This document shows positions 6,223 through 44,065 of a stretch of DNA of 45,110 bases, piece after piece. The translations under genes were made by a program, and so were the position numbers. Positions within the stretch are counted from its first letter, which is position 1. Each line of letters starts with the position of its first letter. The notes under the pieces were generated by a model, which did no database searches, was not told the origin of the DNA, and was given only the letters and a program-made list of their open reading frames with translations. The stretch is from sequence record SRR31156797_922; one strand, 5' to 3'.

Positions 6223-6240
6223 AATTTCCTCCTGTTTTTT

Positions 6241-7010: not shown

Positions 7011-7020
7011 TCCATTCCTC

Positions 7021-11851: not shown

Positions 11852-11936
11852 TAAATAAACAAAAAAGAAAAATATAATTAAATAACGCACATGAACAAAA
11901 AATAATCCAATAATATTTAAAGTTAGGGGGAATAAT

Positions 11937-13427: not shown

Positions 13428-13453
13428 TTAAAAGTATTTAGGAGGATTTTATC

Positions 13454-14443: not shown

Positions 14444-14494
14444 TATTTTAACTGCATTAGCAGTTAGTATAATTAAATTAAGGAGGAGAACAAA

Positions 14495-15547: not shown

Positions 15548-15564
15548 TAAATCTGTATAATCAA

Positions 15565-15601
15565 TTTGGCTGTCTGATAAACTAGGCAGCCAAAAGTTTT
15601 T
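15565..15601 (+). terminator. Stem-loop after the SBP gene (terminator or mRNA stabiliser)
   Basis: TTTGGCTGTCT-N8-AGGCAGCCAAA followed by AGTTTTT. Confidence 0.55.
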
Positions 15602-15740
15602 ATAATGATGCTTTATTAATATGGATTCAATGAAACTAATTAAGCGAAGTGATTTGTAATAAATAGAATGCTAGATGAACAGCCATTTTATATAAGCGTT
15701 CATTAAAAATAGAAGAAAATTAATTAAGGAGGTATTACAA

Positions 15741-25655: not shown

Positions 25656-25682
25656 ACAGGCACTTTGGGTGTCTGTTTTTTT
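25656..25682 (+). terminator. Rho-independent terminator
   Basis: ACAGGCAC-tttgg-GTGTCTGT followed by a T run, after the oxidoreductase operon. Confidence 0.75.
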
Positions 25683-25938
25683 GTGTAAAGCTTGTAATTT
25701 CGCTGTTTTTGCAAATAATAATTATATATTAACTGCTGAAAAATCAAGGAAATATTAAATTTCATATTTCCTTTTCCAATAGTTTGGTGCAATTGACATT
25801 TTGCTGTTTCAGTTCTTAATTCAATCTTTCCATTTAAGCCAAGATATCGCAAATATGTGTATCTGCTGAGCAAATATGGAATTATTCAAATGCAAATAGT
25901 CATTACTAACAAATATAGGTTAATGATTTTGACGAATA

Positions 25939-26005
25939 TTCCAAAGAATTTACCCCCTGTTCCAAAGATAAAATGTTGTTTGGGAATTTGATAGTTTGTT
26001 AAAAT
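25939..26005 (+). promoter_or_regulatory. mgl-like operon promoter with tandem activator sites
   Basis: TTCCAAAGA direct repeats at 25939-25947 and 25960-25968 (21-bp period), weak -35 TTGTTT (25976-25981), extended -10 TGtTAAAAT (25997-26005). Confidence 0.55.
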
Positions 26006-27151: not shown

Positions 27152-27194
27152 TAAGTATAATTAATACAGCTTGAAATAAGTTGTGTATGCGAGG

Positions 27195-27230
27195 AAGAAG
27201 GATATTTTAAATACAATATCCTTCTTTATT
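27195..27230 (+). terminator. Intra-operon stem-loop after the SBP gene
   Basis: AAGAAGGATATT-N8-AATATCCTTCTT, perfect 12-bp stem. Confidence 0.55.
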
Positions 27231-27252
27231 AAAAATTATTCGAGGGGTTATT

Positions 27253-28746
27253 ATGGGAATTGAAAACATACTTAAGATGCAGAATATATCTAAGTCCTTT
27301 CCGGGGGTAAAAGCTCTTGATGATGTTAGTCTTTCAGTGAGAAGAGGATCAATTCACTCATTGATGGGAGAGAATGGAGCTGGCAAATCCACGTTAATGA
27401 AATGTCTTTTTGGTATTTATTCTTTGGATAATGGAGAGATAACCATTGACGGAAAGACAGTTAAATTCGCAAATCCTGCAGAAGCATTGCATAACCATGT
27501 GGCAATGGTACATCAGGAGCTAAACCAAGTACTAGACAGAAGTGTAATGGAAAACATCTGGCTTGGTCGTTATCCGATGCAGGGGATAATGGTTGATGAA
27601 AAGAAAATGTACAAGGATACAAAAGCTATTTTAAAAGAGCTGGAAATCAATGTTGATCCTCGTACTAAACTAGGTACGCTGACAGTGCCAATACGACAAA
27701 TGGTTGAGATAGCAAAAGCCGTTTCATATAATGCAAAGGTTATTGTTATGGACGAACCGACCTCGTCGCTGACAGATAATGAAGTAGAGCATCTTTTTAG
27801 AATTATAAACAAATTAAAGCAAGACGGAACTAGTATTATCTATATATCACACAGGATGGAAGAAATCCTTAGAATATCAGATGAGGTTTCTGTGCTGCGT
27901 GATGGTAAACATATTGGTACAAAAGTAGCATCTGAACTGGATACAGACAATATTATCAAAATGATGGTTGGCAGAGAGCTAAAAGAAAGATATCCAAAGA
28001 GAGATGTATCACTGGGGGAAACAGTGCTTGAAGTTGAGAATATCGATACTTCAATACCAATGTTTAATGATATTAAATTCGATTTGCATCGTGGTGAAAT
28101 ATTGGGAATAGCTGGCCTTGTTGGTTCTAAGCGAACTGAACTGATGGAGACTTTATTTGGATTACGAGAAAAAGGTAATGGGAAAATCAAGCTTAATGGA
28201 CAGGAAATTCACAACAAAACACCAATGAAATCAATAAAAAATGGGTTTGCAATGGTTACAGAAGAAAGAAGGGCAGACGGTATTTTTGCTGAATTAAGTG
28301 TTTCCTCTAATATGATAATTTCAAATCTAAATAATTATCTAGTAAATGGTGTATTGCGCAACAGAAAGATTAATAAGGCAGTTAATGATACTATAGGAAA
28401 ACTCAATATAAAGCTATCATCACCAAAAGCAAGTATAGGTAATCTTTCAGGAGGAAATCAACAGAAGGTTATTCTTGGCAGGTGGCTGCTGTCAAACCCT
28501 CAAATATTTTTATTTGATGAACCGACTCGCGGCATAGATGTTGGTGCAAAATATGAGATATACCAGTTGATGAACAATCTGGTTGCAAGCGGAAAGAGTA
28601 TAATCATGATAAGCTCAGAGATGCCAGAACTATTAGGTACATGTGATCGAGTCTTGGTTATGAGTAACGGACATCAGACTGGAATATTTGATGCAAAAAC
28701 TGTTACACAGGAGCAAATAATGAAGGCATCAGCAATGTATGTCTAA
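27253..28746 (+). CDS. mglA: Galactose/methyl-galactoside ABC ATPase (MglA-like)
   Basis: 497 aa; GENGAGKSTLMKCLFGIY, MVHQEL, YISHRM, TEERR, LSGGNQQK all canonical. Confidence 0.9.
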   Translation: MGIENILKMQNISKSFPGVKALDDVSLSVRRGSIHSLMGENGAGKSTLMKCLFGIYSLDNGEITIDGKTVKFANPAEALHNHVAMVHQELNQVLDRSVMENIWLGRYPMQGIMVDEKKMYKDTKAILKELEINVDPRTKLGTLTVPIRQMVEIAKAVSYNAKVIVMDEPTSSLTDNEVEHLFRIINKLKQDGTSIIYISHRMEEILRISDEVSVLRDGKHIGTKVASELDTDNIIKMMVGRELKERYPKRDVSLGETVLEVENIDTSIPMFNDIKFDLHRGEILGIAGLVGSKRTELMETLFGLREKGNGKIKLNGQEIHNKTPMKSIKNGFAMVTEERRADGIFAELSVSSNMIISNLNNYLVNGVLRNRKINKAVNDTIGKLNIKLSSPKASIGNLSGGNQQKVILGRWLLSNPQIFLFDEPTRGIDVGAKYEIYQLMNNLVASGKSIIMISSEMPELLGTCDRVLVMSNGHQTGIFDAKTVTQEQIMKASAMYV

Positions 28747-28759
28747 CGGGGAGGAAAAT

Positions 28760-29782
28760 ATGAAGAATATTTTTAAAAATGAAAAAACAATTAAACAAAT
28801 TATATCAGACAATATTATATATATTGTTTTATTGGTGCTTATTGCTGTTGTAATAATTATCGAGCCAAGATTTCTTTCTTTTATGAACTTAAAGAATATT
28901 CTCGCTCAGTCATCAACGAAGATAATTATTGCACTTGCGGCAGGTATGGTGCTTATTGTAAGAGGCGTTGACCTCTCAACAGGTAGAATGATAGGTCTTT
29001 CTGCAGTTATATTCGGATCTCTAATGCAGCAGGTAACTTATGGATTCCGTATGTATCCAAATTTGCCCGAACTACCAGTTATTGTACCGCTATTAATTAT
29101 TGGAATAATGTGTGCAATATTAGGTGCAATTATGGGTTCAACTATTGCATATTTGAAAGTACCATCAATTATTGCGACATTGGCAATGCAGCTTGTATTG
29201 TTCGGTGCAGCTTCAATATACTATGACAGACCGCCATATGGTGCTCAGCCAATAGGTGGTATTGATGAAAGAGTTATTAGTATTGGTACAGGAAGCATCA
29301 AATTATTCAATATACAAATACCCTACCTTATCATAATTGCAGCAGTGGTGTGTGCAATAATATGGTTTGTTTGGAACAAAACAAAGTTTGGTAAATATAT
29401 GTTTGCAATAGGTGGTAACCCAGAAGCAGCTAGAGTATCTGGTGTAAATGTGGAAGTAACACAAATTATCGTATTTATGGTTGCTGGGGTATTATATGCA
29501 TTAGCTGCATCACTAGAGGTTGGAAGAATCGGCAGTGCGTCTAATACAACAGGTACTGCATACGAAATGGATGCTATTGCAGCATGTGTTATTGGCGGTA
29601 TTTCTCTATCAGGCGGTATAGGAAGCGTTGGCGGAATAATTGCTGGTGTATTGATATTTACAGTTATAAACTATGGACTTGCATTTATCGGCGTTAATAT
29701 GTATTGGCAGTATATCGTAAAGGGATTAATAATTGCTTTTGCAGTAATTCTGGATATGCGTAAGTACGCTAAGAGCAAGTAA
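28760..29782 (+). CDS. mglC: Galactoside ABC permease (MglC-like)
   Basis: GVDLSTGR, FAIGGNPEAARVSGVN, DAIAACVIGG, YWQYIVKG. Start placed at ATG 28760 behind GGAGG. Confidence 0.9.
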   Translation: MKNIFKNEKTIKQIISDNIIYIVLLVLIAVVIIIEPRFLSFMNLKNILAQSSTKIIIALAAGMVLIVRGVDLSTGRMIGLSAVIFGSLMQQVTYGFRMYPNLPELPVIVPLLIIGIMCAILGAIMGSTIAYLKVPSIIATLAMQLVLFGAASIYYDRPPYGAQPIGGIDERVISIGTGSIKLFNIQIPYLIIIAAVVCAIIWFVWNKTKFGKYMFAIGGNPEAARVSGVNVEVTQIIVFMVAGVLYALAASLEVGRIGSASNTTGTAYEMDAIAACVIGGISLSGGIGSVGGIIAGVLIFTVINYGLAFIGVNMYWQYIVKGLIIAFAVILDMRKYAKSK

Positions 29783-29806
29783 ATATTAGTTAGGAGGAAG
29801 TAAATA

Positions 29807-31879
29807 ATGAGAGAAGTTGTTAAGAATACAAAACTAACAGAGAACTGTAGTAAAGAAGACATAAAAGCTTTTGTAAATGAAGTAATTCCAGAGCTATCTT
29901 TAGATGAGAAAATCGGTATTATGTCAGGACATATTCCTGAACAGGAACTGCTGGACGATTTATTTATACTTGAACACTATAATTATAAGCCATATACCAC
30001 TTCTCCAGTAGAGAGACTGGGAATACCAAATATGCGATTTATAGATGGACCTCGAGGCGTTGTTATGGGATCAGCAACATGCTTCCCAGTTTCTATGGCG
30101 AGAGGAGCTGCATTTAACAGAGAGTTAGAAGAAGAGATTGGACGTGTTATCGGTGCGGAAATCAGAGCGTGCGGCGGCAATTATTATGGCGGCGTATGCA
30201 TTAATCTTCCACGAAATCCTAGATGGGGACGTGCGCAGGAATGCTATGGTGAGGATCAATATCATTTAGGAGAAATGGGTGCAGCCCTGACTAAAGGTAT
30301 ACAGAGTCAGAACGTTATGGCATGTATAAAGCACTATGCAATGAACAGTATGGAAAATGCAAGGTTTAAAGTAGATGTACAGGCTGATAAAAGGACTTTG
30401 CATGAGGTGTACTTGCCACACTTTAAGCGCTGTATAGATGAAAATGCAGCATCTGTGATGGGTGCTTACAATAAAGTATGCGGAGATCAGGCATCAGAGA
30501 GCAAGATGCTCCTAAAAGATATTCTCAGAGACAAGTGGGGCTTTGAAGGATTTACAATATCAGACTTCCTGTGGGCGATAAAAGATGCTGTAAAAGCAGT
30601 AAAGAACGGTATGGATGTTGAGATGCCATGCTACTGCCGTTACTATGAAGAGATACCAAAGGCTGTAGAAGAGGATAGACTGTCTATGGATGATATTGAC
30701 AGATCAGTATCTAGTATTCTCAAGACAATACTTTACTATGAAACAAGAAAAGACCCGATGGAATATCCAGACAATATCATAGCATGTAGTAAACATATTG
30801 AAGTTGCAAAAAAAGCAGCAGAACAATCAATGGTACTGCTGAAAAACGATAATAATGTACTGCCTCTTAATAAAGATGAAATCAAGAGAATTGTAGTTAT
30901 GGGAGTATTAGGTGATACTGAGAATATCGGTGACCATGGCTCTAGTAAGGTACAGCCATATTATACAGTAACTCCGCTGAAGGGAATAATGAACAAACTT
31001 CCTAAAGCACTTGTTCGCTACTATGATGGTTCAGATATTGAAAAGGCAAAAGAAATGGCAAAAGACGCAGATGCTGTCCTCATAGTTGCAGGCTATATCC
31101 ACTCAGACGAAGGTGAATACATAGAAGATGAAAGACCTGAGATTGAGAACCTTGGTGGCGACAGAAAATCAATGAGACTCCACAAACGTGACATTGATCT
31201 GATTAAAGGTTTAGAGGGAGTTAATAAGAATACAATTGTATCTATTGTTGGCTCAAGTGCAATATTAATAGATGAATGGGAATCAAGTGCGCCAGCAATT
31301 TTGTTCTCGTTCTATAGCGGAATGGAAGGCGGAAATGCACTGGCTGATATAATTTTGGGCGATGTTTGTCCAAGTGGAAAGCTTCCGTATGTAGTGGCTA
31401 AATCAGAGGATGATTATCCTGAACTAGATATAGAGGCTACAGAGATTGATTATGGTTACTATCATGGATACTGTAAGCTTGATAAGGAAAACAAGAAGCC
31501 GTTTTATCCATATGGATTTGGCTTGTCTTATACTAAATTTAATATAGGTAAGCCATCAGTTGAAGTGGTAAATGATACTGCAAAGATAACTGTAAAGATT
31601 CAAAACACTGGTGATAAAAAAGGTGCAGAAGTATTGCAGCTATATGTTGGATGCAAATCAAGTGCAGTAGATCGTCCAATCAAAGTTCTGCGTGATTTCG
31701 AACGTATAGAGCTAATGCCGGGTGAAAAGGATAAGGTAAGTTTATCAGTCACCAAAAAGGCTATGGCATATTTTGATGAAGCAGCTGATGATTTCTGCGA
31801 AGAAGATATTAAGTATATTGCTTATATCGGAAATTCAAGCAGTAATAAGGATTTGCAAAGCTGTACATTTCGTTTTTAG
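29807..31879 (+). CDS. GH3 beta-glycosidase (beta-glucosidase/xylosidase type)
   Basis: 690 aa; DGPRG, RNPRWGRAQE, KHY, ISDF nucleophile region, VLLKN, PSGKLP, YGFGLSYT, C-terminal Fn3-like domain; no signal peptide. Confidence 0.92.
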   Translation: MREVVKNTKLTENCSKEDIKAFVNEVIPELSLDEKIGIMSGHIPEQELLDDLFILEHYNYKPYTTSPVERLGIPNMRFIDGPRGVVMGSATCFPVSMARGAAFNRELEEEIGRVIGAEIRACGGNYYGGVCINLPRNPRWGRAQECYGEDQYHLGEMGAALTKGIQSQNVMACIKHYAMNSMENARFKVDVQADKRTLHEVYLPHFKRCIDENAASVMGAYNKVCGDQASESKMLLKDILRDKWGFEGFTISDFLWAIKDAVKAVKNGMDVEMPCYCRYYEEIPKAVEEDRLSMDDIDRSVSSILKTILYYETRKDPMEYPDNIIACSKHIEVAKKAAEQSMVLLKNDNNVLPLNKDEIKRIVVMGVLGDTENIGDHGSSKVQPYYTVTPLKGIMNKLPKALVRYYDGSDIEKAKEMAKDADAVLIVAGYIHSDEGEYIEDERPEIENLGGDRKSMRLHKRDIDLIKGLEGVNKNTIVSIVGSSAILIDEWESSAPAILFSFYSGMEGGNALADIILGDVCPSGKLPYVVAKSEDDYPELDIEATEIDYGYYHGYCKLDKENKKPFYPYGFGLSYTKFNIGKPSVEVVNDTAKITVKIQNTGDKKGAEVLQLYVGCKSSAVDRPIKVLRDFERIELMPGEKDKVSLSVTKKAMAYFDEAADDFCEEDIKYIAYIGNSSSNKDLQSCTFRF

Positions 31880-31909
31880 AAATAATAATCAATTCAAGGA
31901 GGAAAGTAT

Positions 31910-33910
31910 ATGAGAATAGGTGTAGACTATTACTCTGAACATTGGGATAAAAGCAGATGGTCGACAGACGCTGAAATGATGAAAAAAGCCAATATCAGCG
32001 TTATAAGAATTGGCGAATTTGCATGGAGTCTTTACGAGCCATCGGAAGATAAATTCGACTTTGCATGGATGGACGAGGCACTAGACTTCTTTGGTAATGC
32101 AGGAATAAATGTAGTACTGTGTACACCCTCCGCAACTCCGCCGAAGTGGATGACTGATAAGTATCCGGAAATTCTGCAGGATGATATATATGGAAATCCA
32201 AAAATATTCGGGACTCGAAAGCATTATTGTTTCAACAGTGATTTTTACCGTAGAAAGACTCGTGAGATTGTGGAGAAAATCGCAGATAGATATTCATCTC
32301 ATCCAGCTGTAGAGGGATGGCAGATAGATAATGAACTGGGATGGGCTAATACGACTCGCTGCTACTGCAATGAATGCGAGAAGAAATTCAGAAATTGGCT
32401 AAAAGGAAAGTATGGAAATATCGATACTCTAAATAAAGCATATGGTACAGTATTCTGGAGTCAGATATATAATAGTTTTGACGAGGTTATTATTCCAAAG
32501 GCTGGTGCATGCTATGATGTCGATCATGATACACAGGGACAGAATCCAGGGCTTTTGCTGGACTACTACCGTTTTTCAAGTGATTCAGTAATTGACTACA
32601 TGAATGAATCGGTAGATGTAATACGTAAATTCAGCGATAAGCCAATTACGACTAATATGCTGGATGCGGCTGTAAACTCAGGTACAGGCATTGACTATTT
32701 CAAAATGTCTGAAAGTCTTGATTTCGTATCATGGGATAATTATATCGAATTCCAATGGGGTATCGCAGAGGATGCAACAGTGTCTCGTGATCACTCCCTG
32801 CTTAGAAGCTATAAGAAGAAGCCGTTTTGGGTCATGGAGCAGCAGTCAGGACAATGCGGCTGGAGCAAGATGAACAGGACACCAACACCGGGCAAATTAC
32901 GCTTGTGGACATATCAGGCAACGGCAAATGGCGCAGATACGGTTGTATATTTCAGGTGGAGAGCATGTCCGTTTGGCACTGAAGAATACTGGCATGGTAT
33001 ACTTAGCCATGATGGAAAACCAAACAGGAGATATGAAGAAATATCTCGTGTTGGCGAAGAGATGAAAAAGCTAAGTGAGACTTATGATGCTTTGCAGCCA
33101 AAAGCAAAAATTGCAATTATTAAGTCGTTTGATAGTGAATGGAGTCATTCAATACACAAACATGTAGAGAATTTCCATTATGATTCATTATTGCTGGATT
33201 ATTACCGTCCATTCTATGATATGGGCATTGCTGTGGATTTTGTAGCTCCAGGTGATGATATTTCTGAATATCAGCTTGTACTTGCACCAGCTCTTCTCAT
33301 GGTAACTGATGATGAAAAAGCTAACCTTGAAAAATATGTTACTGCTGGAGGAAAACTATTACTATCATTTAGAAGCGGAATTAAAGATACATGCAATAGT
33401 ATGCTGACGCAAACTGTACCTGGAGTATTTGCTGATATGACAGGAGTCAAGGTACATGACTACGATCCGCAGTATAAAAAGCAGACCAAAGTTTCAGGAG
33501 TATTCGGACAAGGCATCGCAAAGCTCTGGTGTGACATCATAGAAACTGATATGGCTGATAGCTTAGGAGAATATATCGAGGATTTCTATGCAGGGAATTC
33601 ATGCTTTACCAAGAATGCTGTAGGAAATGGAATAGTTTATTATTTGGGTTGTGATTTAGACAAACCGGCAATGATAAATCTAATGAAATATCTATGCGAT
33701 GAAATAAAATTGGTTGTTGATTTATATTCCATAAAGGGCGTGGAAATTGTGAATGCAACAGATGGTAAAGAAACAGCAGAGTTTATTTTAAATCATAATG
33801 ATTATCCTGTAATTGTACCAGTTGATGGGCAGTATAAAGAGATGATTACTGGTCAAAAAGTAAATGGGAAAGTTAAATTACAAGCATACGATGTTGCGAT
33901 TCTAAAATGA
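31910..33910 (+). CDS. GH42 beta-galactosidase
   Basis: 666 aa; GVDYY.EHW, GEFAWS, WQIDNE acid/base, C-x-C-x2-C metal site, WVMEQ nucleophile, YFRWR, EEYWHG. Confidence 0.95.
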   Translation: MRIGVDYYSEHWDKSRWSTDAEMMKKANISVIRIGEFAWSLYEPSEDKFDFAWMDEALDFFGNAGINVVLCTPSATPPKWMTDKYPEILQDDIYGNPKIFGTRKHYCFNSDFYRRKTREIVEKIADRYSSHPAVEGWQIDNELGWANTTRCYCNECEKKFRNWLKGKYGNIDTLNKAYGTVFWSQIYNSFDEVIIPKAGACYDVDHDTQGQNPGLLLDYYRFSSDSVIDYMNESVDVIRKFSDKPITTNMLDAAVNSGTGIDYFKMSESLDFVSWDNYIEFQWGIAEDATVSRDHSLLRSYKKKPFWVMEQQSGQCGWSKMNRTPTPGKLRLWTYQATANGADTVVYFRWRACPFGTEEYWHGILSHDGKPNRRYEEISRVGEEMKKLSETYDALQPKAKIAIIKSFDSEWSHSIHKHVENFHYDSLLLDYYRPFYDMGIAVDFVAPGDDISEYQLVLAPALLMVTDDEKANLEKYVTAGGKLLLSFRSGIKDTCNSMLTQTVPGVFADMTGVKVHDYDPQYKKQTKVSGVFGQGIAKLWCDIIETDMADSLGEYIEDFYAGNSCFTKNAVGNGIVYYLGCDLDKPAMINLMKYLCDEIKLVVDLYSIKGVEIVNATDGKETAEFILNHNDYPVIVPVDGQYKEMITGQKVNGKVKLQAYDVAILK

Positions 33911-33933
33911 TTACGCAACAAAAGAAGATAATG

Positions 33934-33964
33934 AAAGGAAGGCGTAAACAGCTTTCCTTTTTTT
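33934..33964 (+). terminator. Rho-independent terminator
   Basis: AAAGGAAGGC-N7-GCTTTCCTTT plus T run, between convergent operons. Confidence 0.7.
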
Positions 33965-35453
33965 ATGATTTTTTTCTATCTGACGTACTGCTGGTTGCTT
34001 TATAAAAAAATCGGTGGTATTCATCTGCGTCAACCATCTTCCCCGATTTAAAGAAGACTGTAGTGCCTTTAATATAGTTAGCTGCTGCTATGTTTGATGA
34101 CAATACAATAACAGATATACCGTGATTTTCAAGTTCCTCAATCATTTTTATAGTTACCTCTGCCAGATGTACGTCTATGTCACTAAAAGGCTTAATACAC
34201 ACCACAACTTTTGCTGAATAGAGTATCCATTTTAAATAGGCAATTTGCTGAAGTGCAATAGGATCCAGATCTTTTAGCTTGTTATGCAAGATTTTCTTAT
34301 TGAGTGTATTAATTATATAGTCATCAATGCTTTTCATATACCCGGGCTTTAACCACAATCCATTTTCTTTATGTGAAAGTGTTATTGCAAGATTATCTCT
34401 GACGCTCATATTATAAAAGAGCATATTATTATATGGAGGCTCATTAACAAAGCATATTCCTTTTTTAACAGCATTGTAAATGTTTTTGATTTTCAGTGAT
34501 TGATCATTAAGCAATATCTCCCCTGATTGTATGGGAATAGAGCCATTGAGCAGACCAACGATACCATCACAGCTTTCATCATCCAGATAGAGCATTTTGA
34601 TTATTTCTCCGGATTCAATAGAGAGATTAAGATTTTTAATATGTTTATTAGATACATTTTTAAATTCCAATACACTTTTCCCATGTTGTGTATTCTTTAT
34701 ATTTTGAGATGATACCAAATTAAATTTTTCATTTAAATTAAATACCTCTGTTAAAGTAGTATAAATCTTATGTCTATTAACTGATTTTGAATCAAACATA
34801 CCTATGCTTTTACCATGCTGAATAACATATACTTGACTAATCCAATCGTAAACTACGCTATCAACAGGCTCAATGATAACAAAGGACATTTGCTTCTCTT
34901 TTAGCTGGTTGATAAGGAGATAAATTTCATTTAGTTCGTCAATGCTTAGTCCTGTTAATTCAGACAGCACAATAATACTCTTGTTTTCTACATATGCCTT
35001 TAGAAGTTCTACAATAATCCTGTTTTTATAGGAGAGCGGCCATGTTGAATTCTCTATAATATGATTAAGATTAAATTGCTCAATAAGCTCTGCAAATTTT
35101 TTCTGATATTTTTTCTTTAAGTATGTACTGCTGTTATCTGAAAAAAGAAGGATATTTTCTTCGATTTTAAGCGATGATATAAGCTTGGTATTTGGTTCGA
35201 TAACGGATACATTATCTTTCATAAAAACTGAAGCTGATTCAATGGGAATATCTTTTTCGCAGGAATACAATTTGCCCGAAAACAAAGTGTATGAGCCTTT
35301 AAAAAAATCAAGCAAGAATTTCTTTTGAGCAACTCTATCAATAATGATACTAATAATATCACTTCTAAAAACCTGAAGATAAAGATTACTGAATATTACT
35401 TTTTTTTGCTTGATAACTATTGCGTTCTCAATTGTCAGCAGTTCGTATTTCAT
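33963..35453 (-). CDS. Degenerate tandem ABC ATPase-fold protein (predicted pseudo-ATPase)
   Basis: 496 aa, collinear with RbsA/MglA (VLEFKNVS, NLNLSIESGEI, MSVRDNL), but Walker A reads IDRVAQKK, Walker B IIVLSE, H-loop VIIEP, signature LDPIALQQ, second Walker B CIKP. Confidence 0.82.
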   Translation of the reverse strand: MKYELLTIENAIVIKQKKVIFSNLYLQVFRSDIISIIIDRVAQKKFLLDFFKGSYTLFSGKLYSCEKDIPIESASVFMKDNVSVIEPNTKLISSLKIEENILLFSDNSSTYLKKKYQKKFAELIEQFNLNHIIENSTWPLSYKNRIIVELLKAYVENKSIIVLSELTGLSIDELNEIYLLINQLKEKQMSFVIIEPVDSVVYDWISQVYVIQHGKSIGMFDSKSVNRHKIYTTLTEVFNLNEKFNLVSSQNIKNTQHGKSVLEFKNVSNKHIKNLNLSIESGEIIKMLYLDDESCDGIVGLLNGSIPIQSGEILLNDQSLKIKNIYNAVKKGICFVNEPPYNNMLFYNMSVRDNLAITLSHKENGLWLKPGYMKSIDDYIINTLNKKILHNKLKDLDPIALQQIAYLKWILYSAKVVVCIKPFSDIDVHLAEVTIKMIEELENHGISVIVLSSNIAAANYIKGTTVFFKSGKMVDADEYHRFFYKATSSTSDRKKS

Positions 35454-35460
35454 ACTTATC

Positions 35461-36483
35461 CTACTTTTTTTTAATAAAAGGTAACGTAATTCTTACATTT
35501 GTACCCATATTGCGGATGCTATAAACACGAATTCCATATTCTTCGCCAAAGAGAATTTTTATTCGGCGACATACATTATTCAGTGCTATACCTTGATGAA
35601 TAGTATCATCTTCCTGTATATATGATAAAGAAATGTGCTCTAATCTGATGTTTATTTCATCTAATTCTTTCTCATCAATACCTACTCCGTCATCATTAAC
35701 ACTTATTAAAACGTTTCTGTCTGTAAGTGTAACACTTATCTTTATTGTACCTCCGTCACTCTTTGTTTCCAGACCATGAATTATTGAGTTTTCAATTATA
35801 GGCTGTAACATGAGCTTGGGGCATTGTGTCAGCATAACGTCCGCATCGTCTGGTGTATCTATCACCATTTTTAATTTCTCACCAAAGCGATATTGCTGTA
35901 TTTTAAAATAGTTTTCAACATTCTCCAGTTCATCTGTTAAAAAAACCAGAGTTCCTGTTTTTGTGATAGTATATTGGAAATATGTAGACAGAGCTTCAGT
36001 TATATCAGCAATATTCTCCATACCCATACAGAGTGCATCACCTCTTATAGCTTCAAGTGTATTGTATAAAAAGTGTGGATTGATTTGGTTTTGGAGAGCC
36101 AAAAGCTCTGCCTGTTTAGTTGACAGCTCAATAATTTTTTGTCTATTAACCATCCTGTCAAAACGAATCATGACACCATGCAATGAGGGGAAAAGAAGCT
36201 TTGATTTATCAATAAGCTCCTGATATACACGACCTTTAATGAATTGATTAAACAGCTTTTTGTAAGCATTATAGGGGCGAATTATTGTATTGTTAAAAAT
36301 TAGAAGCAGTACAGTAATGATTAATATATCAGCAAAACCCAGAAGTAATAAGAAGTACCATTCGAGTTTATAGGATGCAGAGATTGAGAGGGATATTGTA
36401 ATTAAGCATACTACAACAATTGTAATCAAAAGGATGATAAAAATGATGGTTTTATTAATAAATGTGCGTTCCCTATGTTTCAT
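35461..36483 (-). CDS. YesM/LytS-type sensor histidine kinase without an extracellular sensor domain
   Basis: 340 aa; two adjacent N-terminal TM helices, LQNQINPHFLYNTL H-box, LQPIIENSIIHG, DDGVG. Confidence 0.93.
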   Translation of the reverse strand: MKHRERTFINKTIIFIILLITIVVVCLITISLSISASYKLEWYFLLLLGFADILIITVLLLIFNNTIIRPYNAYKKLFNQFIKGRVYQELIDKSKLLFPSLHGVMIRFDRMVNRQKIIELSTKQAELLALQNQINPHFLYNTLEAIRGDALCMGMENIADITEALSTYFQYTITKTGTLVFLTDELENVENYFKIQQYRFGEKLKMVIDTPDDADVMLTQCPKLMLQPIIENSIIHGLETKSDGGTIKISVTLTDRNVLISVNDDGVGIDEKELDEINIRLEHISLSYIQEDDTIHQGIALNNVCRRIKILFGEEYGIRVYSIRNMGTNVRITLPFIKKK

Positions 36484-36515
36484 TTTTTCTCCTAGCAGCG
36501 TTAGGCAGATACCAA

Positions 36516-38120
36516 TTAACTATACAATTTTCTATAGTTATTCGGACTTAAACCAGTTGTCTTTTTAAATAGTTTTGCAAAATATTTAGTATCTGCATAT
36601 CCAACTTTGTATGCCACATCTGTAATACTGGTATCGGTTTTAACAAGGTAGCTTTTTGCATTTCTCATTCTTATTTCTGTAACGTATTCTAAGAAGTTCT
36701 TACCTGTTTCTTTCTTGAACAGTGTGGAAAAATAGGCTGGATTAAAACCAATAGCTGTACTGATGCTTTCAAGGCTGATTGCAGTATGATAATTTTGATT
36801 TATGTATTGCTTGGCTAATATTATCGGCTTGCTTTCTTTATATTTTTTATCAAACAAGTATTTATCAAATTCGTTTTTGAGTTCTTCAATAAGCCAGTCG
36901 AAAATATTATCAATAGTTAACATAAATTGATATTTTTTTAGAAAGAAACTCAAATCAGGGAGACTGAAATCAGTTAAGTAATTTCTTATAGTAAAGAATA
37001 TTGCTTCAATAATTTTCTGATAACATTCATATACTTCTGTTCCAGTACATGATGTAGTTTTTATCATTGATTTAATACAGCTTATTTCGTTTATAACGCC
37101 ATCAAAGTCAAGACATTCCAGATGCGAAAGTATAGCATCCCTTTTGTCTGCATCAAAAATTGATTTAGTTTCATACTCAGAATATTTCTGTGAGCTGTGA
37201 ACAATAGGATGCCTAGGATACATAACCCTATTACTGATTGCAGTTTCGGCAGAATCATATGATGAGAGTAGTTCCTTAGCAGTAGTAGCAGTATTGCCGA
37301 TACCGATAACAATAAAGAAATTCTGGAATATGGTCTTTAGAGTGTTTGCATCATGAATAGATTTCTGAAGATTAATTTCTATATTTGAAAAAGCAGTATC
37401 TTGAGTATTAATAAAATATACAATTTCGTTATTCCAAATTGTAGATACAACTTCGCTGCAGCATTCCTTTAATCTCTTTTCAACAATCAGTTTTAGCTTG
37501 GAAAGCAGCATACTATACATTTCATTACTATAGTCACTTGTTTGTGTGTATGGGCGTACGATTAGTGTAATAAAATTACCTCTGAAATTACAGCAGTATT
37601 CTTGGTTAAGCTCTTCTATTTGTTTATTCCATTTTTCACTTTGAGGGTTAACCAACATTTCGTAAATAAGATTTTTCTTGACTTTTTCAGTAGATAAGTC
37701 AAGAGCAATTTTTAGATTTTCTTTTTCTGAGGCAGTTGACATTAATATGCTATGTTTTTCGGCTATCTTCTCAAGAGCCTTTACTAACTCATTTTTTTTA
37801 AGAGGCTTTAGCAAATAGTCGTCAACCCCATATTTAACTGCTTTTTGTGCATATTCAAATTGGCTGTGACCACTGATAATGATGAAATAGATATTGCTAA
37901 ATTTCTCTTTTGCTTTACGTATCAGTTCAATTCCATCGTAAGTAGGCATTCGTATATCAGTGATTACAATATCAGGTTGTTTCTCACAAATATTATTAAA
38001 AGCTGTTTTGCCATCATTTGAGATTGCTACAACTTCCATATTGTATTTATTCCAATCAATTAAATTATATATTAATTGGCATACTTTGGGCTCATCATCA
38101 GCAATGAGAACTTTTAACAA
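36516..38120 (-). CDS. YesN/AraC family two-component response regulator
   Basis: IADDE, TDIRMP, YLLKP receiver and C-terminal AraC HTH. Likely TTG start at 38120 behind GGAG; the ORF track starts at 38129. Confidence 0.94.
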   Translation of the reverse strand: MLKVLIADDEPKVCQLIYNLIDWNKYNMEVVAISNDGKTAFNNICEKQPDIVITDIRMPTYDGIELIRKAKEKFSNIYFIIISGHSQFEYAQKAVKYGVDDYLLKPLKKNELVKALEKIAEKHSILMSTASEKENLKIALDLSTEKVKKNLIYEMLVNPQSEKWNKQIEELNQEYCCNFRGNFITLIVRPYTQTSDYSNEMYSMLLSKLKLIVEKRLKECCSEVVSTIWNNEIVYFINTQDTAFSNIEINLQKSIHDANTLKTIFQNFFIVIGIGNTATTAKELLSSYDSAETAISNRVMYPRHPIVHSSQKYSEYETKSIFDADKRDAILSHLECLDFDGVINEISCIKSMIKTTSCTGTEVYECYQKIIEAIFFTIRNYLTDFSLPDLSFFLKKYQFMLTIDNIFDWLIEELKNEFDKYLFDKKYKESKPIILAKQYINQNYHTAISLESISTAIGFNPAYFSTLFKKETGKNFLEYVTEIRMRNAKSYLVKTDTSITDVAYKVGYADTKYFAKLFKKTTGLSPNNYRKLYS

Positions 38121-38625
38121 ATTAATCACTCCAAATCATTAAGTTGTATTATAAGTATAAACAGCAAAAGGAATTTCAACTAAGCAAATTGTTCTGTGTG
38201 TTTATTTTGATGATTCTTAATACTCTTAGTTAATATTTTGCAATAATTTCATACCCTGGTTGTAATTCTATTATTATCTTAACCAACCTATTAAAAATTA
38301 TATTTAGCTATCTATAGTGGAACGAAAAGTAATCGTAGCATGGTTGAATATGTTTGTCAATAGAACCTTTTCTGAGATTTTCTAGATTGTAAAACATGTG
38401 ATATTTGCTATACAAATAAGTCACTATGGCACTGCAGAATCGTTTTCTGTAGAGCTGATAACTGTCTGTTTTGCGTACATTTTTGTTTTGTTCTTTATAT
38501 TTTTTAGTTGTTGTATACAGTGATGTGATTTTATAAAAATTAAGGGTTTATTTGTAAAAATTATTTATGGATTATGATGGAATGACTTTATTAAGTATTT
38601 ATATGGTCGCTTCTTAACTAATGCG

Positions 38626-41600
38626 TTAAAGCAGTCCTAAGCTCTGTGCTTTTATAATAGCTTTTATCCTGCTGTCAACATTCAACTTATTCATTATGTG
38701 CCCAATATGGCTTTTTGTTGTGCTTAAAGAAATATTCAGTCTTTCACATATTTCTGCATTGGAGAGACCATCAGCTACTAGTTTTAGCAGTGCTAATTCT
38801 CTTTTTGTTAAAACAGATGTTACTTTCCTAGGTCCTAACAGCTTTTCAATACTTATATTTTTTATTGTCTTTTGCTTCATGATAAACGTAGGAAGCATAC
38901 TCTTAATAAAAGCAATATCGTTTTTATAAATTGGTTTTTCTTTCTTTTCAATGTATAAAAGTCCGATAAAAACTTTGTGGTATAGTATTGGAATACAGGT
39001 AATATTGAGATTTGGATTATCAATAATATGTGCATCGCTATCAAACAAATTGTTCTTCTTTGTTGAAATATAGTGTACTTCATTATTGGTTCTTCCTACA
39101 TATCTGATTATTTTATGAGCAATATTACTGATAAAATTTATATTACGCATTTCATCGTACTGTTTGTAATCTAAGTCCTTGTTAATTTGATGCTTTATTA
39201 ATAGTTCATCTGACTTTTCAAATATTATGCAGCAGAAATCACTTTGTGTTTTATTTACAATGATTTCTAATATTTTTTGAGCAGTTTCGTTCTCGTTGCA
39301 GCCTTGCAGAGCCTCAATAGCACCGTTGTATTGTTCTTTAACAGTATTTAGAATTATATTATCTTCTATAACTTGTACCTGCTGTTGATTAATATTGAAT
39401 TCTTTATTAATGCTCTGGACAATATACTCTGCTCCAAATAAATCAAAAGAAGATGAGGCATTTTCAGCGTAAAACATTTGTAAATCATAATTTTTATTTT
39501 GAAATCTTGCAGCTCTCAAATTAGCAAGAGCTTCGATTTTTATATTACCTTGCTTTTTTGCATAATGTATTACATTATTATATTCGCTGCACATGGATAC
39601 ATTGTTCTTTATATATATTTCATATTCGGTATTAACTAAAGCATAATAGCTGTAGAAGTTTTCGTAATTAATATTTGTCCAATATTTTAGTTCGTTTAGA
39701 TACTTCTTAATTGTTTTTATATTTCTTAATTTTTTACTATCAAGTAATTTATCATTCACAGATATTCTGATTAAGCTGCTGTAAAATATTATAAAAACCC
39801 TAAAGACCAATCCCTTGCTTTCCTTTAACTCATTAAAGGGTGCTTGTATCATCTTTTGGGCAAGACTATATCCCGTATCAATCTCATCAAACAAATACAG
39901 TTTCTCAAGCATTAATGCGTGTTCACTGATTTTTTCAAATTCTGTGAGCGATGGGTAATTACTATTGATTAAGTCAAAGTCTTTTGAATTTTCACCATAT
40001 TTTAAAGCGTGTACATAATTTGTGTATATTTGATAATTATAGAGGGTTGATTCCTGCTCAATATCCTTAAACATTGGTTTATTAGTATTAATATACAATG
40101 TTATTTTATCTAAAGATGAACCTATTAACAGTTTAGTATCCAGACTGGATATTATAGAATAATTAAGAAACAAAAAGTCTCCATTCAGCTTTCCGAAGTA
40201 GATTGATTTCTGTAAGATTTCATCTGCTGTTTTAAAAGATTTTGACCAATGAGCTAGAAAAGCACCGATAAGGAAATATACTACTGCTTTTGTAGAATGG
40301 TCATTAGTTTTTTCTGCTAACTGGAGAATGGTATCCTCTAAAAGTACAGATTTTTTATGATTATGCATTATCATAAATAAAATATAGTTATAAGAAATAT
40401 ACCCTAGTAAAGAGTTGCCGTCAGCAGAATTTTTTGAAGCTAATAATGCCGCAAATACACCAATAGGTCCTCTCAGATTATCTGATGTAAGTGTTGCGCA
40501 GGCATTCATAATAACAAGTACCTGCAGCAAAGATGATACTTCTTCTTTTTGCTTTAGTTTTCCATCTCGTAATTTTTGGATATAGTTTTTGCTGTATTTG
40601 ATATTGCATATCAGAAGCTCCAAAGGCAGGCATAGAGTTGACACTGGTGAGATGCCAAACGGACTAAATGTAATATCTGAAGCATTTATTATCTCCATCC
40701 CGACTTTCAACACATCTTTGTGTCTGCCATCGTTATGGAGCAAGTAAAGCTGCTTCATCTTTATTTTCTGCAATATTTCTTTGCTGTTTTTTTTGTTTAG
40801 AAGCATATTGATTGTTTTACCAGCTTCAGCCTTGTTATCTGTGTAGTATAAGCATTCAGCAAGCTCTAGATAAATATTTGTGTAGAGTATGCCTTCGATA
40901 CTTTCAGTGTATGGCAGAAGCTTGGTGCACAATGTGAACATTGCTAGTGCCGAATCCATTGATAATAATTGTTTTTCATTTATACCAGCATCAAAGAGAA
41001 TTTTCAGCCATTTTTCCGTATCATTATACAAAGCACGCTCTGATGACTTCAGAAGATGAGAGGCAATCAAAGTATTTTTATTATTAATATTAACTTCTGT
41101 AGAGTTTATTAATGAACAAGCAATATCAAAATGCGTTTGCTGCATTTCATTGCTGTCAAAGCTCTCTTCAATAATTTTAAAAATTATATCATGAGAAAAT
41201 AGAATTGTTTTCTTATCTGCATCATGCAATGATGTCATAATAATGGCAGTATTTGTTAGGCTGTCCAATCGTCTGTTCAATGTTTGTGTATCCATATTTG
41301 AGACTGCTTTTAAGGTGTCATAGTCAACTTTACCGGAAAAACATGCTATTAATCGTATTAGAATGGAATTGTTATCTAATTCTTTATTTATGTTTTTCTT
41401 TAATATATTCTCCACAGTATCATTGATATAATAATTACTGACTTCATTTACACTCATAGTCCATTTCTGATATGCATTGGAGTAGCAAATGATTCCATCA
41501 CGCAACATGATTTTTATTAATTCTTTGACATAGAACGGATTACCCATAGTCATGCCGTATATAAATCTAACAAAATATTCTTTATTAAAAAAGTTTCCAT

Positions 41601-42342
41601 AAAACATTTTATCAATAAATTGCTCTATGGATTGATAATGAAGAAAAGGTAAATCAATATATATGAATTCTTCTAATGAACTTAAAAAATTTTCTATTGT
41701 CGGAGAAGCGGAATTGTTTCTTACAGATATGATGAGCATTATATTGATCATATCTTTTTTCTTTATAAGTGCATTAATTATGTCAATTGTTGTTTTGTTC
41801 GCCCATTGAACATCATCTATATGCAGTACCATTGGATAAAGATATATAGATGTTTTTGTTATGAATTCTACTATTGTATTTTTAGTTTTATATACTAATT
41901 TTGAGTAATCTGGAGTATTATCTTTTGTATCTAAACCAAACAGGTTTTTCAATACAGGACTAAGCGTAGAAAGTAATGCAATATCATTTTTTAATTCTGA
42001 TTTCAAATCTCTAACAATATTATCCAAAATATCTTTAGGAAGAGTAAGTATATATTTTGTTATCTGATCTACTATATCAAATATATGATTAATGTAAAAT
42101 TCTTCTGACTGAATATTTTTTGTATATAGGTAAGTTGAGCCTTCCAAAGCTTTTACAGCATTATCCACCAAAAAAGATTTGCCGCATCCTGGCTGACCGA
42201 CTATTGTTACTATTCCCATAGAGCCCTGAAGCACCTTGTCATATGAATTATTAATTCTTGCTAATTCATTTTCTCTGCCTACAAAAATACTGTCAATATT
42301 TTTTATATTCTTTTTAGATTTTTCTATTTTCAGGCTATTCAT
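38626..42342 (-). CDS. Large STAND-type regulator: AAA ATPase - helical/TPR-like region - GAF-like domain - LuxR HTH
   Basis: FVGRE, Walker A GQPGCGKS, Walker B HIDDVQWA, GNPFY, FSHD; GAF-like IIRYV.RT...CIPI...GLLYIE; LuxR LTKRE..LLKLVADGLSNAEI. Start placed at ATG 42342 (GGAG RBS; candidate TTGTAT-18-TATAAT promoter upstream). Confidence 0.88.
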   Translation of the reverse strand: MNSLKIEKSKKNIKNIDSIFVGRENELARINNSYDKVLQGSMGIVTIVGQPGCGKSFLVDNAVKALEGSTYLYTKNIQSEEFYINHIFDIVDQITKYILTLPKDILDNIVRDLKSELKNDIALLSTLSPVLKNLFGLDTKDNTPDYSKLVYKTKNTIVEFITKTSIYLYPMVLHIDDVQWANKTTIDIINALIKKKDMINIMLIISVRNNSASPTIENFLSSLEEFIYIDLPFLHYQSIEQFIDKMFYGNFFNKEYFVRFIYGMTMGNPFYVKELIKIMLRDGIICYSNAYQKWTMSVNEVSNYYINDTVENILKKNINKELDNNSILIRLIACFSGKVDYDTLKAVSNMDTQTLNRRLDSLTNTAIIMTSLHDADKKTILFSHDIIFKIIEESFDSNEMQQTHFDIACSLINSTEVNINNKNTLIASHLLKSSERALYNDTEKWLKILFDAGINEKQLLSMDSALAMFTLCTKLLPYTESIEGILYTNIYLELAECLYYTDNKAEAGKTINMLLNKKNSKEILQKIKMKQLYLLHNDGRHKDVLKVGMEIINASDITFSPFGISPVSTLCLPLELLICNIKYSKNYIQKLRDGKLKQKEEVSSLLQVLVIMNACATLTSDNLRGPIGVFAALLASKNSADGNSLLGYISYNYILFMIMHNHKKSVLLEDTILQLAEKTNDHSTKAVVYFLIGAFLAHWSKSFKTADEILQKSIYFGKLNGDFLFLNYSIISSLDTKLLIGSSLDKITLYINTNKPMFKDIEQESTLYNYQIYTNYVHALKYGENSKDFDLINSNYPSLTEFEKISEHALMLEKLYLFDEIDTGYSLAQKMIQAPFNELKESKGLVFRVFIIFYSSLIRISVNDKLLDSKKLRNIKTIKKYLNELKYWTNINYENFYSYYALVNTEYEIYIKNNVSMCSEYNNVIHYAKKQGNIKIEALANLRAARFQNKNYDLQMFYAENASSSFDLFGAEYIVQSINKEFNINQQQVQVIEDNIILNTVKEQYNGAIEALQGCNENETAQKILEIIVNKTQSDFCCIIFEKSDELLIKHQINKDLDYKQYDEMRNINFISNIAHKIIRYVGRTNNEVHYISTKKNNLFDSDAHIIDNPNLNITCIPILYHKVFIGLLYIEKKEKPIYKNDIAFIKSMLPTFIMKQKTIKNISIEKLLGPRKVTSVLTKRELALLKLVADGLSNAEICERLNISLSTTKSHIGHIMNKLNVDSRIKAIIKAQSLGLL

Positions 42343-42422
42343 TCTCTTCTCCATAGGTATATACACATACTTTATAACATTATACAATGGTAAATAAAGA
42401 TAATACAACAGGATTTTTTAAT

Positions 42423-43069: not shown

Positions 43070-44065
43070 TCATTTGGTAAATGACTCTCTATATTCTAGG
43101 TCGCCCTGTACAGTCTTAACTCTTGCTACATTCTTGCCATCAAATACATCCAGTAATGTCCTTACAGCATCTGTACATAGTATTTCAACTTTGTTATCAA
43201 TAGAAGTAATTGATGGTGAGGAGCATTCAGCTAGTACAGAATTGTTAAAACCTATGACTTTAACATCTTCAGGTACATTGATACCATGACTGGATAGTGC
43301 TTTTACCACACCTACTGCCAGAATGTCAACAGATGTAATTATTGCGCTGAATTTGATTTCACTGGATATTACTTCATCAATTAGTAACTTTACGCTGTCA
43401 ATATCTCTGGTGCATTTACAGCTTTGCTTGGTATTGGCTACAGCACCTATAGATTTCATACCAGCTAAGTATCCCTTTCTTTTACTGATACCGCTAGATG
43501 TATCGCAGTCATAGATATATAGTATGTCTTTATGTCCTTTTTCGGATAACGTAATAACACAGTCTTTCATTGCTTTGTATTCATCACATTTTACTGAATA
43601 GGTATTATCAAACTTAAATTCACCATTAATGATTATTATTGGTATTGTTTTTGATGCTTTTTTAATATGACTGTTGTTATCTAATTCCTGGAAGATTGAA
43701 CCTATTAGTATTATTGCATCAACACGTTTTGACAACAGTACATCAATAGCCTTCTTTTTATCATCCAAGTCCATTCCAGTACAGCATAAAATAGCATCAT
43801 ATCCTTGTTCTCGCAGTTCGTTTTCTATTACAGAGACGGCTTTTGCATAATAAATATCGGAAACGTCTGAGCAGATTACTCCGATCATCTTAATACTGTC
43901 CAATCCCAGTGCTCTTGCAAATGCATTTGGAGTGTATCCCATTTCATCTATTACTTTTAGGACTTTATCTCTAGTTTTTGGGCTTACACTATCTTTTTGA
44001 TTCAATATCCTTGATACAGTTGCGATAGAAACACCGGCTTTGTCCGCTATGTCGTAAATATTCAT
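43070..44065 (-). CDS. LacI family transcriptional regulator
   Basis: 331 aa; IYDIADKAGVSIATVSRILN, YTPNAFARAL hinge, VIGFNN, PSITSI. Confidence 0.96.
   Translation of the reverse strand: MNIYDIADKAGVSIATVSRILNQKDSVSPKTRDKVLKVIDEMGYTPNAFARALGLDSIKMIGVICSDVSDIYYAKAVSVIENELREQGYDAILCCTGMDLDDKKKAIDVLLSKRVDAIILIGSIFQELDNNSHIKKASKTIPIIIINGEFKFDNTYSVKCDEYKAMKDCVITLSEKGHKDILYIYDCDTSSGISKRKGYLAGMKSIGAVANTKQSCKCTRDIDSVKLLIDEVISSEIKFSAIITSVDILAVGVVKALSSHGINVPEDVKVIGFNNSVLAECSSPSITSIDNKVEILCTDAVRTLLDVFDGKNVARVKTVQGDLEYRESFTK

Follow-up and report, generated by a model that had tools for sequence, protein, structure and literature searches.

The 45,110-nt stretch of sequence record SRR31156797_922 that was analysed here (the window) carries on its minus strand three genes, arranged head to tail, which encode a YesN-type response regulator, a short membrane histidine kinase and a homologue of the tandem ATP-binding cassette (ABC) ATPases of CUT2 sugar importers in which the ATP-site motifs have been replaced (hereafter, the pseudo-ATPase). 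Our collective results suggest that this trio is very probably a dedicated signalling unit with the pseudo-ATPase as its third component, a role that is well supported because the trio is conserved and the pseudo-ATPase gene does not evolve neutrally. The trio looks like an undescribed way of sensing sugars. We postulate, giving the whole chain a probability of about one half, that the signal passes from the loaded binding protein of a neighbouring importer to its permease and then, via the pseudo-ATPase, the kinase and the regulator, to the mglB promoter. The three genes are as follows.

36516-38120, minus strand: YesN-type response regulator with a receiver, a middle region and an AraC-type helix-turn-helix (HTH) domain (Pfam)
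35461-36483, minus strand: short YesM/LytS-type histidine kinase, 340 aa (Pfam, AlphaFold2)
33963-35453, minus strand: pseudo-ATPase, CUT2-type protein with tandem ABC nucleotide-binding domains, 496 aa (motifs, fold, substitution rates, tree)

The regulator and kinase genes are separated by 32 nt and the kinase and pseudo-ATPase genes by 7 nt; our list of open reading frames (ORFs) reproduced both these gaps and the coordinates of the tightly packed minus-strand genes in the original prediction. No permease or binding-protein gene was found inside the trio among the ORFs from 33963 to 38129 and their domain matches, and the trio is convergent with an mglB-mglA-mglC operon that also encodes two glycoside hydrolases (GH), GH3 and GH42 (26036-33910, plus strand). 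The earlier description of a trio without its own permease or binding protein, facing a complete importer operon, agrees with the Pfam and NCBIfam matches.

Loss of the ATP sites under purifying selection

The pseudo-ATPase matches the profiles of its presumed relatives poorly. Pfam gives a marginal ABC_tran match only, in one stretch (31.7 bits vs. a cut-off of 25), while the best NCBIfam match, to RbsA, reaches 110 bits vs. a cut-off of 745 (residues 22-457) and the MglA model 73.2 bits vs. a cut-off of 828, both below the curated score expected of a CUT2 ATPase. The protein nevertheless has the expected architecture of two nucleotide-binding-domain folds in one chain of about 500 aa: its AlphaFold2 model has a predicted local distance difference test (pLDDT) value of 80.5, and the top Foldseek matches in the PDB are tandem-domain ATPases, with TM-scores of 0.67-0.72. 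By sequence no close solved structure was found, the best match being a generic nucleotide-binding domain at 58.7 bits.

Replacements affect Walker A, the Q-loop, Walker B and the H-loop in half 1, and Walker A, the signature and Walker B in half 2, so that the protein lacks the half 1 Walker A, the half 2 LSGGQ and the Walker B of both halves that define a CUT2 ATPase. In the window protein IDRVAQKKF stands where MglA has GENGAGKST (Walker A, half 1), and LDPIALQQ, VLSELT and VCIKPF take the places of LSGGNQQK, VMDEPT and LFDEPT. Among 20 orthologues from the window and from genome loci, not one retains any of the seven ATP-site motifs tabulated, although one of the 20 is a fragment that spans only part of them; the half 1 Walker A consensus GxxGxGK[ST] is absent from all 19 that cover its region. 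Adjacent MglA proteins retain GENGAGKST, LSGGNQQK and DEPT without exception (17/17), as does the MglA of the window. The replacement motifs are themselves conserved within the orthologue group (FDSIxER, YMDDES, IEESPY and CIKPFTExDIH). Both halves have an asparagine just after the Q-loop (residue 100 and residue 354) that is conserved to at least 97% in pseudo and working ATPases alike; in MalK this segment contacts the coupling helix of the permease, lining the groove for it. Its conservation is a hint of permease docking that is suggestive only, as the residue is also part of a structural motif.

The loss of all catalytic motifs, together with the marginal Pfam match, is what one would expect if the gene were a decaying, functionless duplicate of an importer ATPase. 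We regard this as extremely improbable. The ratio of nonsynonymous to synonymous substitution rates (dN/dS, Nei-Gojobori) is 0.085-0.112 over five pairs with dS of 0.32-0.73, close to the values of the kinase (0.072-0.137) and the regulator (0.062-0.094); MglA gives 0.041-0.065. Neutral evolution, which the original prediction had named as speaking against itself, is thus not what is seen: the pseudo-ATPase is under purifying selection and is not a relic. Moreover, the open frames remain full-length even where identity has fallen to about 20-25%, and this in at least 150 clusters (50% identity), and the proteins carrying the conserved new motifs form a clade apart from the working ATPases. In a FastTree phylogeny of 128 rows, one branch with 99% local support has 60 working ATPases on one side and, on the other, all 63 pseudo forms (the Herbinix row being placed among them in this count) and five half-dead forms, in which Walker A is kept and the signature lost. 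Therefore, the pseudo-ATPase is an old paralogue rather than a recent copy of the adjacent mglA. The half-dead homologues, found in five cassettes (L082, L093, L103, L104 and L106) and lacking LSGG, branch with the pseudo-ATPases and may be intermediates or versions that bind nucleotide without hydrolysing it.

The family extends well beyond these orthologues. A word-index search returned 27 full-length relatives at 35-57% identity, below which scores fall sharply to working ATPases at 25% identity or less, while a profile search of 1.84 billion representatives gave, as its best 150 proteins, matches that all have E-values of 2.4e-70 or lower; the search implies a family of several hundred to a few thousand proteins. 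Half 1 is covered in 147 of these best 150, and 146 of the 147 lack GxxxxGK[ST]; in half 2, LSGG and D-E-P are absent from all 150, and the hallmark is x-C-x-x-P-F at the former Walker B. In the genome samples, some of the matches near the 1e-55 threshold (L108 and L110-L115) were working ATPases and were excluded from the counts. The trio was confirmed in at least 21 of 201 sampled genomes from the family of the Lacrimispora genome and in at least 12 of 400 genomes sampled evenly across its class; both figures are floors because only a few candidates per genome were scored. For the class sample only matches of at least 358 bits were used, after a motif check; a broad 73-row profile gives working ATPases 260-300 bits, and its tally of 284 out of 400 genomes is uninformative on the pseudo-ATPase. 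The loci that carry names belong to Lachnospiraceae and related Clostridia from gut, bioreactor and soil samples. Present annotations call them 'sugar ABC transporter ATP-binding protein' or 'hypothetical', and the protein atlas clusters are equally generic.

A two-helix kinase and its YesN-type regulator

In order, the kinase has two membrane helices joined by a 6-residue loop, some 50 conserved linker residues, the His_kinase domain, which includes the H-box, and a HATPase_c domain. With Pfam matches of 84.5 bits to His_kinase (PF06580) and 39.3 bits to HATPase_c, and with NPHFLYNTL, ENAIxHG and DNGVG conserved across 20 aligned members (the H-box and the N and G boxes), it is a YesM/LytS-type kinase. 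Hydrophobic stretches at residues ~10-32 and ~42-66 correspond to helices at 8-35 and 42-82 in the AlphaFold2 model (pLDDT 77.9), with six residues between them, and the two membrane helices are retained in 28 of 28 aligned members. No extracellular sensor domain lies between the helices, the loop having only ~6-10 residues across the aligned members. The earlier label of a sensor-less kinase was thus right as regards the missing extracellular domain, but the protein is not soluble: both the hydrophobic segments and the model indicate a two-helix membrane protein. No PAS domain was present among the Pfam matches of the kinase. HAMP was considered as the identity of the linker and rejected, as Pfam HAMP matched none of 28 family members at E-values up to 1; hence, about 50 conserved residues between the membrane and the phospho-acceptor helix fit no named domain.

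The regulator ORF runs from 36516 to 38129, and its likeliest start is a TTG at 38120 with GGAG 8 nt upstream, in agreement with the end coordinate given before. The protein, of 534-537 aa, has Pfam matches to Response_reg (95.7 bits) and HTH_18 (82.2 bits), and the receiver has its acidic pocket, with the aspartate within VITDIRMP. A receiver combined with a C-terminal AraC-type HTH in a protein of about 500-550 aa is the YesN-type layout.

The trio is conserved beside CUT2 importers

Loci were collected from species-representative genomes, metagenomes, a second cassette of one Lacrimispora genome, 400 genomes of the class and 201 of the family, which left 67 distinct pseudo or half-dead genes once duplicates and three false labels had been removed (these three 'half-dead' labels fell on unrelated ABC exporter ORFs, two in L012 and one of 617 aa in L088). 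A short kinase gene of 261-370 codons, in some cases cut by contig ends, lies immediately upstream of the pseudo-ATPase gene in 67/67; in L006 and L023 it was assigned by reading the loci directly, owing to over-long ORF calls. In every locus with at least 2.8 kb of upstream sequence a YesN-type regulator precedes the kinase (59/59); 55 of these loci have it as one intact ORF, and in the other 4 it is split. Of 29 loci measured, 16 have a 26-nt overlap between the kinase stop and the pseudo-ATPase start and 5 a 4-nt overlap, and only one of the 29 has a gap larger than 22 nt. Among 41 loci with at least 5 kb on both sides, 39 have a CUT2 permease within 6 kb; the count for a binding protein is 37 and that for a working ATPase 36. 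The conservation of the trio next to CUT2 transporters, which had been proposed as a check of the original prediction, was thus borne out. One Lacrimispora genome carries two such cassettes with different importers.

The importer may lie downstream, upstream or divergent, in the order binding protein-ATPase-permease or ATPase-permease-binding protein. Within the orthologue group of the window, 25 of the 28 loci that extend past the gene run into mglB and, contig allowing, mglA-mglC-GH3-GH42; 22 of these 25 are co-directional and 3 divergent. The convergence emphasized earlier therefore holds for the window but is exceptional, being unique within this group. The importer operon of the window comprises the following genes.

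26036-27151, plus strand: mglB, lipoprotein galactose/glucose-type binding protein of the CUT2 importer (Peripla_BP_4, 151 bits)
27253-28746, plus strand: mglA, working tandem ATPase with all motifs intact (ABC_tran, 174.3 bits, 2 stretches)
28739-29782, plus strand: mglC, sole permease gene of the importer (BPD_transp_2, 127.9 bits)
29807-31879, plus strand: GH3 glycosidase without signal peptide (Pfam, signal-peptide check)
31910-33910, plus strand: GH42 beta-galactosidase-family enzyme without signal peptide (471.3 bits)

The mglB product has a signal peptide and a lipobox cysteine and scores 270.7 bits with the MglB NCBIfam model, under its cut-off of 420; the mglA product reaches 742.6 bits vs. 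828 with the MglA model and the mglC product 426 bits vs. 386 with the MglC model. As it has no signal peptide, the GH3 enzyme would be cytoplasmic.

These neighbourhoods bear on the idea that the pseudo-ATPase is a brake on transport, i.e., that it is co-expressed with the kinase without signalling to it, and occupies MglC so as to block MglA. Such a role would suit a protein that has the fold and length of MglA but has lost catalysis, that retains the post-Q-loop asparagine in both halves and that is encoded beside importers. However, the gene is tied to the kinase gene, often overlapping it, and not to the importer genes, whose position, order and strand vary and which are sometimes absent; furthermore, a brake would leave unexplained how a kinase with a 6-residue outer loop senses anything. 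We therefore consider this explanation improbable.

An operator-like element upstream of mglB

Two features precede mglB in the window.

25935-25978, plus strand: 44-nt operator-like element, 57 nt before the mglB start codon
25976-26005, plus strand: putative activator-dependent mglB promoter with a weak -35 (TTGTTT), an 18-nt spacer and a -10 of TAAAAT, read from the sequence

In the window the element consists of two TC(T/C)AAA repeats 21 bp apart with a C-run between them, and its GTTG end lies at the -35 position. The same 44-nt element occurs in the same register upstream of mglB in 14 of 14 non-redundant loci, with the consensus nAnCnTCTAAAnACnGnCCCCCCTnnTCTAAAGATnGAAnGTTG, i.e., two TCTAAA direct repeats at 21-bp spacing, ending where the -35 would be. 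A degenerate pattern gave one match in the window and none in 100 shuffles. Because of single mismatches, the exact IUPAC pattern recovered the element in only 16 of 36 loci, and a weight matrix was used instead. With this matrix the window site scores 43.4 bits and is the sole site of at least 20 bits in the 45-kb window; with a leave-one-out matrix it scores 29.5 bits, the maximum in 20 shuffled windows being 0.3. Exactly one site of at least 43 bits is present in each of 27 loci, the window included, and the next gene is mglB in 26 of them (in L029 the contig ends first). The element keeps its place before mglB whether the trio is co-directional, divergent or convergent. In Herbinix, where the target operon is a different one (a glycyl-radical enzyme with another CUT2 importer), a 27-bit copy lies just before its first gene.

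Both the position of the element, which abuts the -35, and its direct-repeat form fit an AraC-type activator site. Judging from their co-occurrence, we consider it likely that the YesN-type regulator binds the 44-nt element and activates transcription. The putative mglB promoter is not among the consensus promoter matches, as might be expected for a weak -35.

A proposed route from the importer to the kinase

Structure prediction of the complexes had been proposed as a check on the coupling of the pseudo-ATPase. For the kinase and the pseudo-ATPase it returned ipSAE interface scores of 0.40, 0.42 and 0.40 vs. 0.00 for the best of three controls, a verdict of 'weak support'; the runs share at least 88% of contacts, the partner has a pLDDT of at least 69, and the fold was made without alignments from this analysis. 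In the calibration, 51 of 78 solved complexes and 2 of 108 mismatched pairs attained the pass mark, and at scores of 0.60 or lower only 5 of the 78 solved complexes reached it, plus all 4 passing mismatches. We find it fairly likely that the pseudo-ATPase touches the kinase. Of the dedicated signalling adaptor originally proposed, the dedicated component stands, by conservation and selection, while its physical coupling to the kinase is so far weakly suggested, by an ipSAE of 0.40.

Some variant loci bear on the next step, towards the permease. In L088 the gene order is regulator-kinase-pseudo-ATPase-binding protein-permease, with no working ATPase before unrelated genes begin, an importer-shaped set with what by its motifs is a dead motor; in L024 the permease gene directly follows that of the pseudo-ATPase. 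Together with the post-Q-loop asparagine, these loci are cited in support of docking of the pseudo-ATPase on the permease, which we put forward tentatively, as a little short of an even chance.

According to the mechanism that we propose, the pseudo-ATPase would be the input module of the kinase, co-produced with it and bound to it, and would sit on the cytoplasmic coupling sites of the CUT2 permease dimer (here MglC) in the place of MglA. Arrival of sugar-loaded MglB on the permease would cause a rearrangement that the pseudo-ATPase relays to the kinase, with no ATP being turned over. Once phosphorylated, the regulator would bind the direct repeat of 21-bp spacing next to the mglB promoter -35, and in this way switch on mglBAC and the two glycosidases, which would both be cytoplasmic.

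Several observations weigh against this chain. A pseudo-ATPase in the place of MglA would have to compete with MglA for one MglC dimer. In the two cassettes of the order regulator-kinase-half-dead ATPase-binding protein (L103 and L106), which lie beside an AraC::GH39 fusion, a phosphotransferase system (PTS) transporter and a GH1 enzyme, no permease is found within 8 kb, the PTS transporter standing there instead. No CUT2 gene appears within the shorter flanks of L023 (4.6 kb upstream and 10 kb downstream), L072 (2.6 and 8 kb) and L098 (1.3 and 7.9 kb), and L023, the closest relative of the window (52% identity), has no copy of the operator in 16 kb. Since five relatives keep Walker A, nucleotide binding may matter in part of the family. 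By the method's own guidance, ipSAE values in the range obtained mislead in most cases, except where the contact was already probable on other grounds. As for the operator, 14 of the 27 strong sites built the matrix that scored them, many of the loci are close relatives, and co-occurrence is the sole link between the regulator and the element. Finally, the search found no fused or longer relatives of the kinase-ATPase type, which is weak evidence.

Some of the same loci would suit the main rival explanation, a sensor of a cytoplasmic cue. Here the pseudo-ATPase would bind the kinase and read an intracellular signal without contacting any permease. Nucleotides, other proteins and imported sugars or sugar phosphates are all candidate cues, with the old ATP pockets at the interface of the two halves presumably serving as the ligand site. 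The former ATP-site positions do carry new, strongly conserved motifs within the orthologue group rather than degenerate noise, and these motifs vary among subfamilies, as ligand sites of differing specificity might; the permease-less cassettes L103 and L106, the loci without a nearby importer (L023 and L072) and the five relatives with Walker A point the same way. On the other hand, 39 of the 41 well-flanked loci have a permease no more than 6 kb away, and a cytoplasmic sugar sensor needs no CUT2-type importer in particular; L088 joins the pseudo-ATPase with a permease and a binding protein and no working ATPase; and the two membrane helices kept in all 28 kinases could be spared in a purely cytoplasmic circuit. 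We know of no sugar-binding role for this fold. All in all, we regard such a sensor as somewhat unlikely.

A further variant, which we judge unlikely, is that the kinase dimer and the dead tandem ATPase form a transporter-shaped receptor by themselves. The four membrane helices of the kinase dimer and its juxtamembrane linker may then stand in for the permease and its coupling helices, and a CUT2 binding protein may be read directly from outside, the permease being optional. This arrangement fits better than permease docking with L103 and L106, which are permease-less, and with L023 and L072, which are importer-less. If true, a kinase acting as permease would represent a new receptor class made of ABC-importer parts.

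Relation to known sensory systems

Transporter subunits, or their non-transporting paralogues, act as partners of regulators in MalK-MalT and UhpC-UhpB. MalK, itself an active ATPase, uses an additional C-terminal domain to sequester a transcription factor, and UhpC is a membrane transporter homologue; in the present trio, unlike in these two, a nucleotide-binding protein with dead motifs is paired with a histidine kinase.

Among kinases without an outside sensor, those of BceAB-BceRS in Bacillota and VirAB-VirRS in Listeria are two-helix proteins with almost no outer loop that are unable to sense alone and rely on a neighbouring ABC transporter (PMC7828314). The kinase described here likewise has the intramembrane-sensing form, with two helices and a short loop, and the likeness would extend to a regulator that induces the transporter operon. 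However, Bce systems are of the exporter type, with a working BceA, an OmpR-type regulator and a BceB permease whose outer loop is large, and they sense peptide antibiotics, whereas our trio lies beside a binding-protein-dependent CUT2 sugar importer whose permease is of the BPD_transp_2 family, not the Bce type, and combines a YesM/LytS-type kinase (PF06580) and an AraC-type regulator with an extra dead ATPase paralogue dedicated to the kinase. In PstSCAB-PhoU-PhoR, the kinase, which has no outside sensor, is informed by an ABC importer via a cytoplasmic adaptor (PMC9239213 and PMC13577022). That adaptor, PhoU, has an unrelated fold and works with an active PstB and a PAS domain in PhoR, while the adaptor proposed here is an ATPase homologue; no PhoU match was found among the window ORFs scanned.

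Related systems by protein family are XylFII-LytS-YesN of Clostridium beijerinckii and CuaD-CuaS-CuaR of Ruminiclostridium cellulolyticum, which switch on a neighbouring sugar ABC importer (PMC8050422, PMC10384115 and PMC5663094). They share with our trio the kinase and regulator families and the logic of importer activation, but their kinases have an extracellular four-helix domain to which a second binding protein docks, a domain that the kinase studied here lacks. In addition, the window trio has no binding protein and its third component is cytoplasmic and ATPase-like. Two loci, L021 and L022, show the classic XylFII-LytS-YesN layout, and, unlike the window trio, the cassettes of L088, L103 and L106 include a gene for a binding protein.

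The literature searched, which included PMC3899296, yielded no account of a kinase that has a dead ATPase as its partner, subscription journals and supplements being beyond reach. Within that scope we did not find the family described, and a tandem ATPase with dead motifs has no counterpart in the Bce, Pst or XylFII/Cua systems. Kinases lacking a sensor domain are a standing puzzle, and in the few that have been solved (Bce, Pho) the accessory differs from case to case; the accessory family proposed here is a dead copy of the motor of an importer, always encoded with a short kinase. If true, the mechanism would show that the ABC nucleotide-binding fold can carry a conformational signal without ATP turnover, and genes of this kind now annotated as 'ABC transporter ATP-binding' would have to be read as signalling parts and not as transport ATPases. 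The conserved operator provides a direct handle for defining regulons, and the control of sugar uptake in these bacteria is of practical interest.

Additional features of the window and related loci

Three further sites were noted around the trio and the importer operon.

33933-33961, no strand assigned: hairpin with T and A tracts between the convergent units (11 pairs, then a T-run)
25656-25676, plus strand: terminator-like hairpin ending the upstream oxidoreductase genes (consensus scan)
38332-38360, minus strand: promoter-like site upstream of the regulator gene, TTGACA, 17 nt, TG-TACGAT (consensus match only)

The first hairpin is probably a two-way terminator. The second would mark the mglB operon as a separate transcription unit, weak evidence by itself; terminator-like sites are not enriched in the scan (4 found vs. 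5.0 expected in shuffles). The same is true of promoter-like sites (48 found vs. 59.7 expected), and the promoters named here are to be taken as readings.

The entire window is a succession of carbohydrate-use loci. Directly upstream of the trio and on the same strand lies a gene for a 1260-aa protein (38626-42408, minus strand) with an N-terminal AAA_16 domain and a C-terminal LuxR/GerE HTH, i.e., a MalT-like large regulator, followed by a LacI-family gene at 43070-44065. At 482-8886 (minus strand) there is a PTS cluster encoding enzyme I, a GH38 alpha-mannosidase, EIIC, EIIA and a BglG/Mga-type regulator with its own EIIA domain. At 9331-11630 (minus strand), an intact 501-aa tandem ABC ATPase (GENGAGKSS, LSGGTHQK and DEPT) is encoded co-oriented with a DeoR repressor gene, with a 4-nt overlap, and this pair is divergent from a complete CUT2 importer (11937-15547, plus strand) that has its own ATPase, permease and binding protein. 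Judged by gene position, the 501-aa protein appears to be an 'extra' ATPase that belongs with a regulator and not with a permease.

Related loci provided some additional observations. In L009, the Lacrimispora xylanisolvens chromosome, the genes mglB, mglA and GH3 are broken up, with two or three ORFs apiece (11462-17481), while the trio, mglC and the GH42 gene are intact; sequencing error might have produced such frameshifts, or else the target operon has recently begun to decay. The fusions beside the cassettes of L103 and L106 are single ORFs of 774-816 aa (L103:10773-13097 and L106:4413-6863) that join a cupin/AraC ligand domain, an AraC HTH and GH39, apparently a transcription factor fused to a glycoside hydrolase, and adjoin a PTS EIIBC(A) gene and the GH1 enzyme. 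In the metagenome-assembled genome of Herbinix (L019:8750-16303), the trio precedes genes for a pyruvate-formate-lyase-like glycyl-radical enzyme, a CUT2 importer and a radical-SAM activase, an arrangement which suggests that an anaerobic sugar or deoxy-sugar pathway may be controlled by the same type of sensor.

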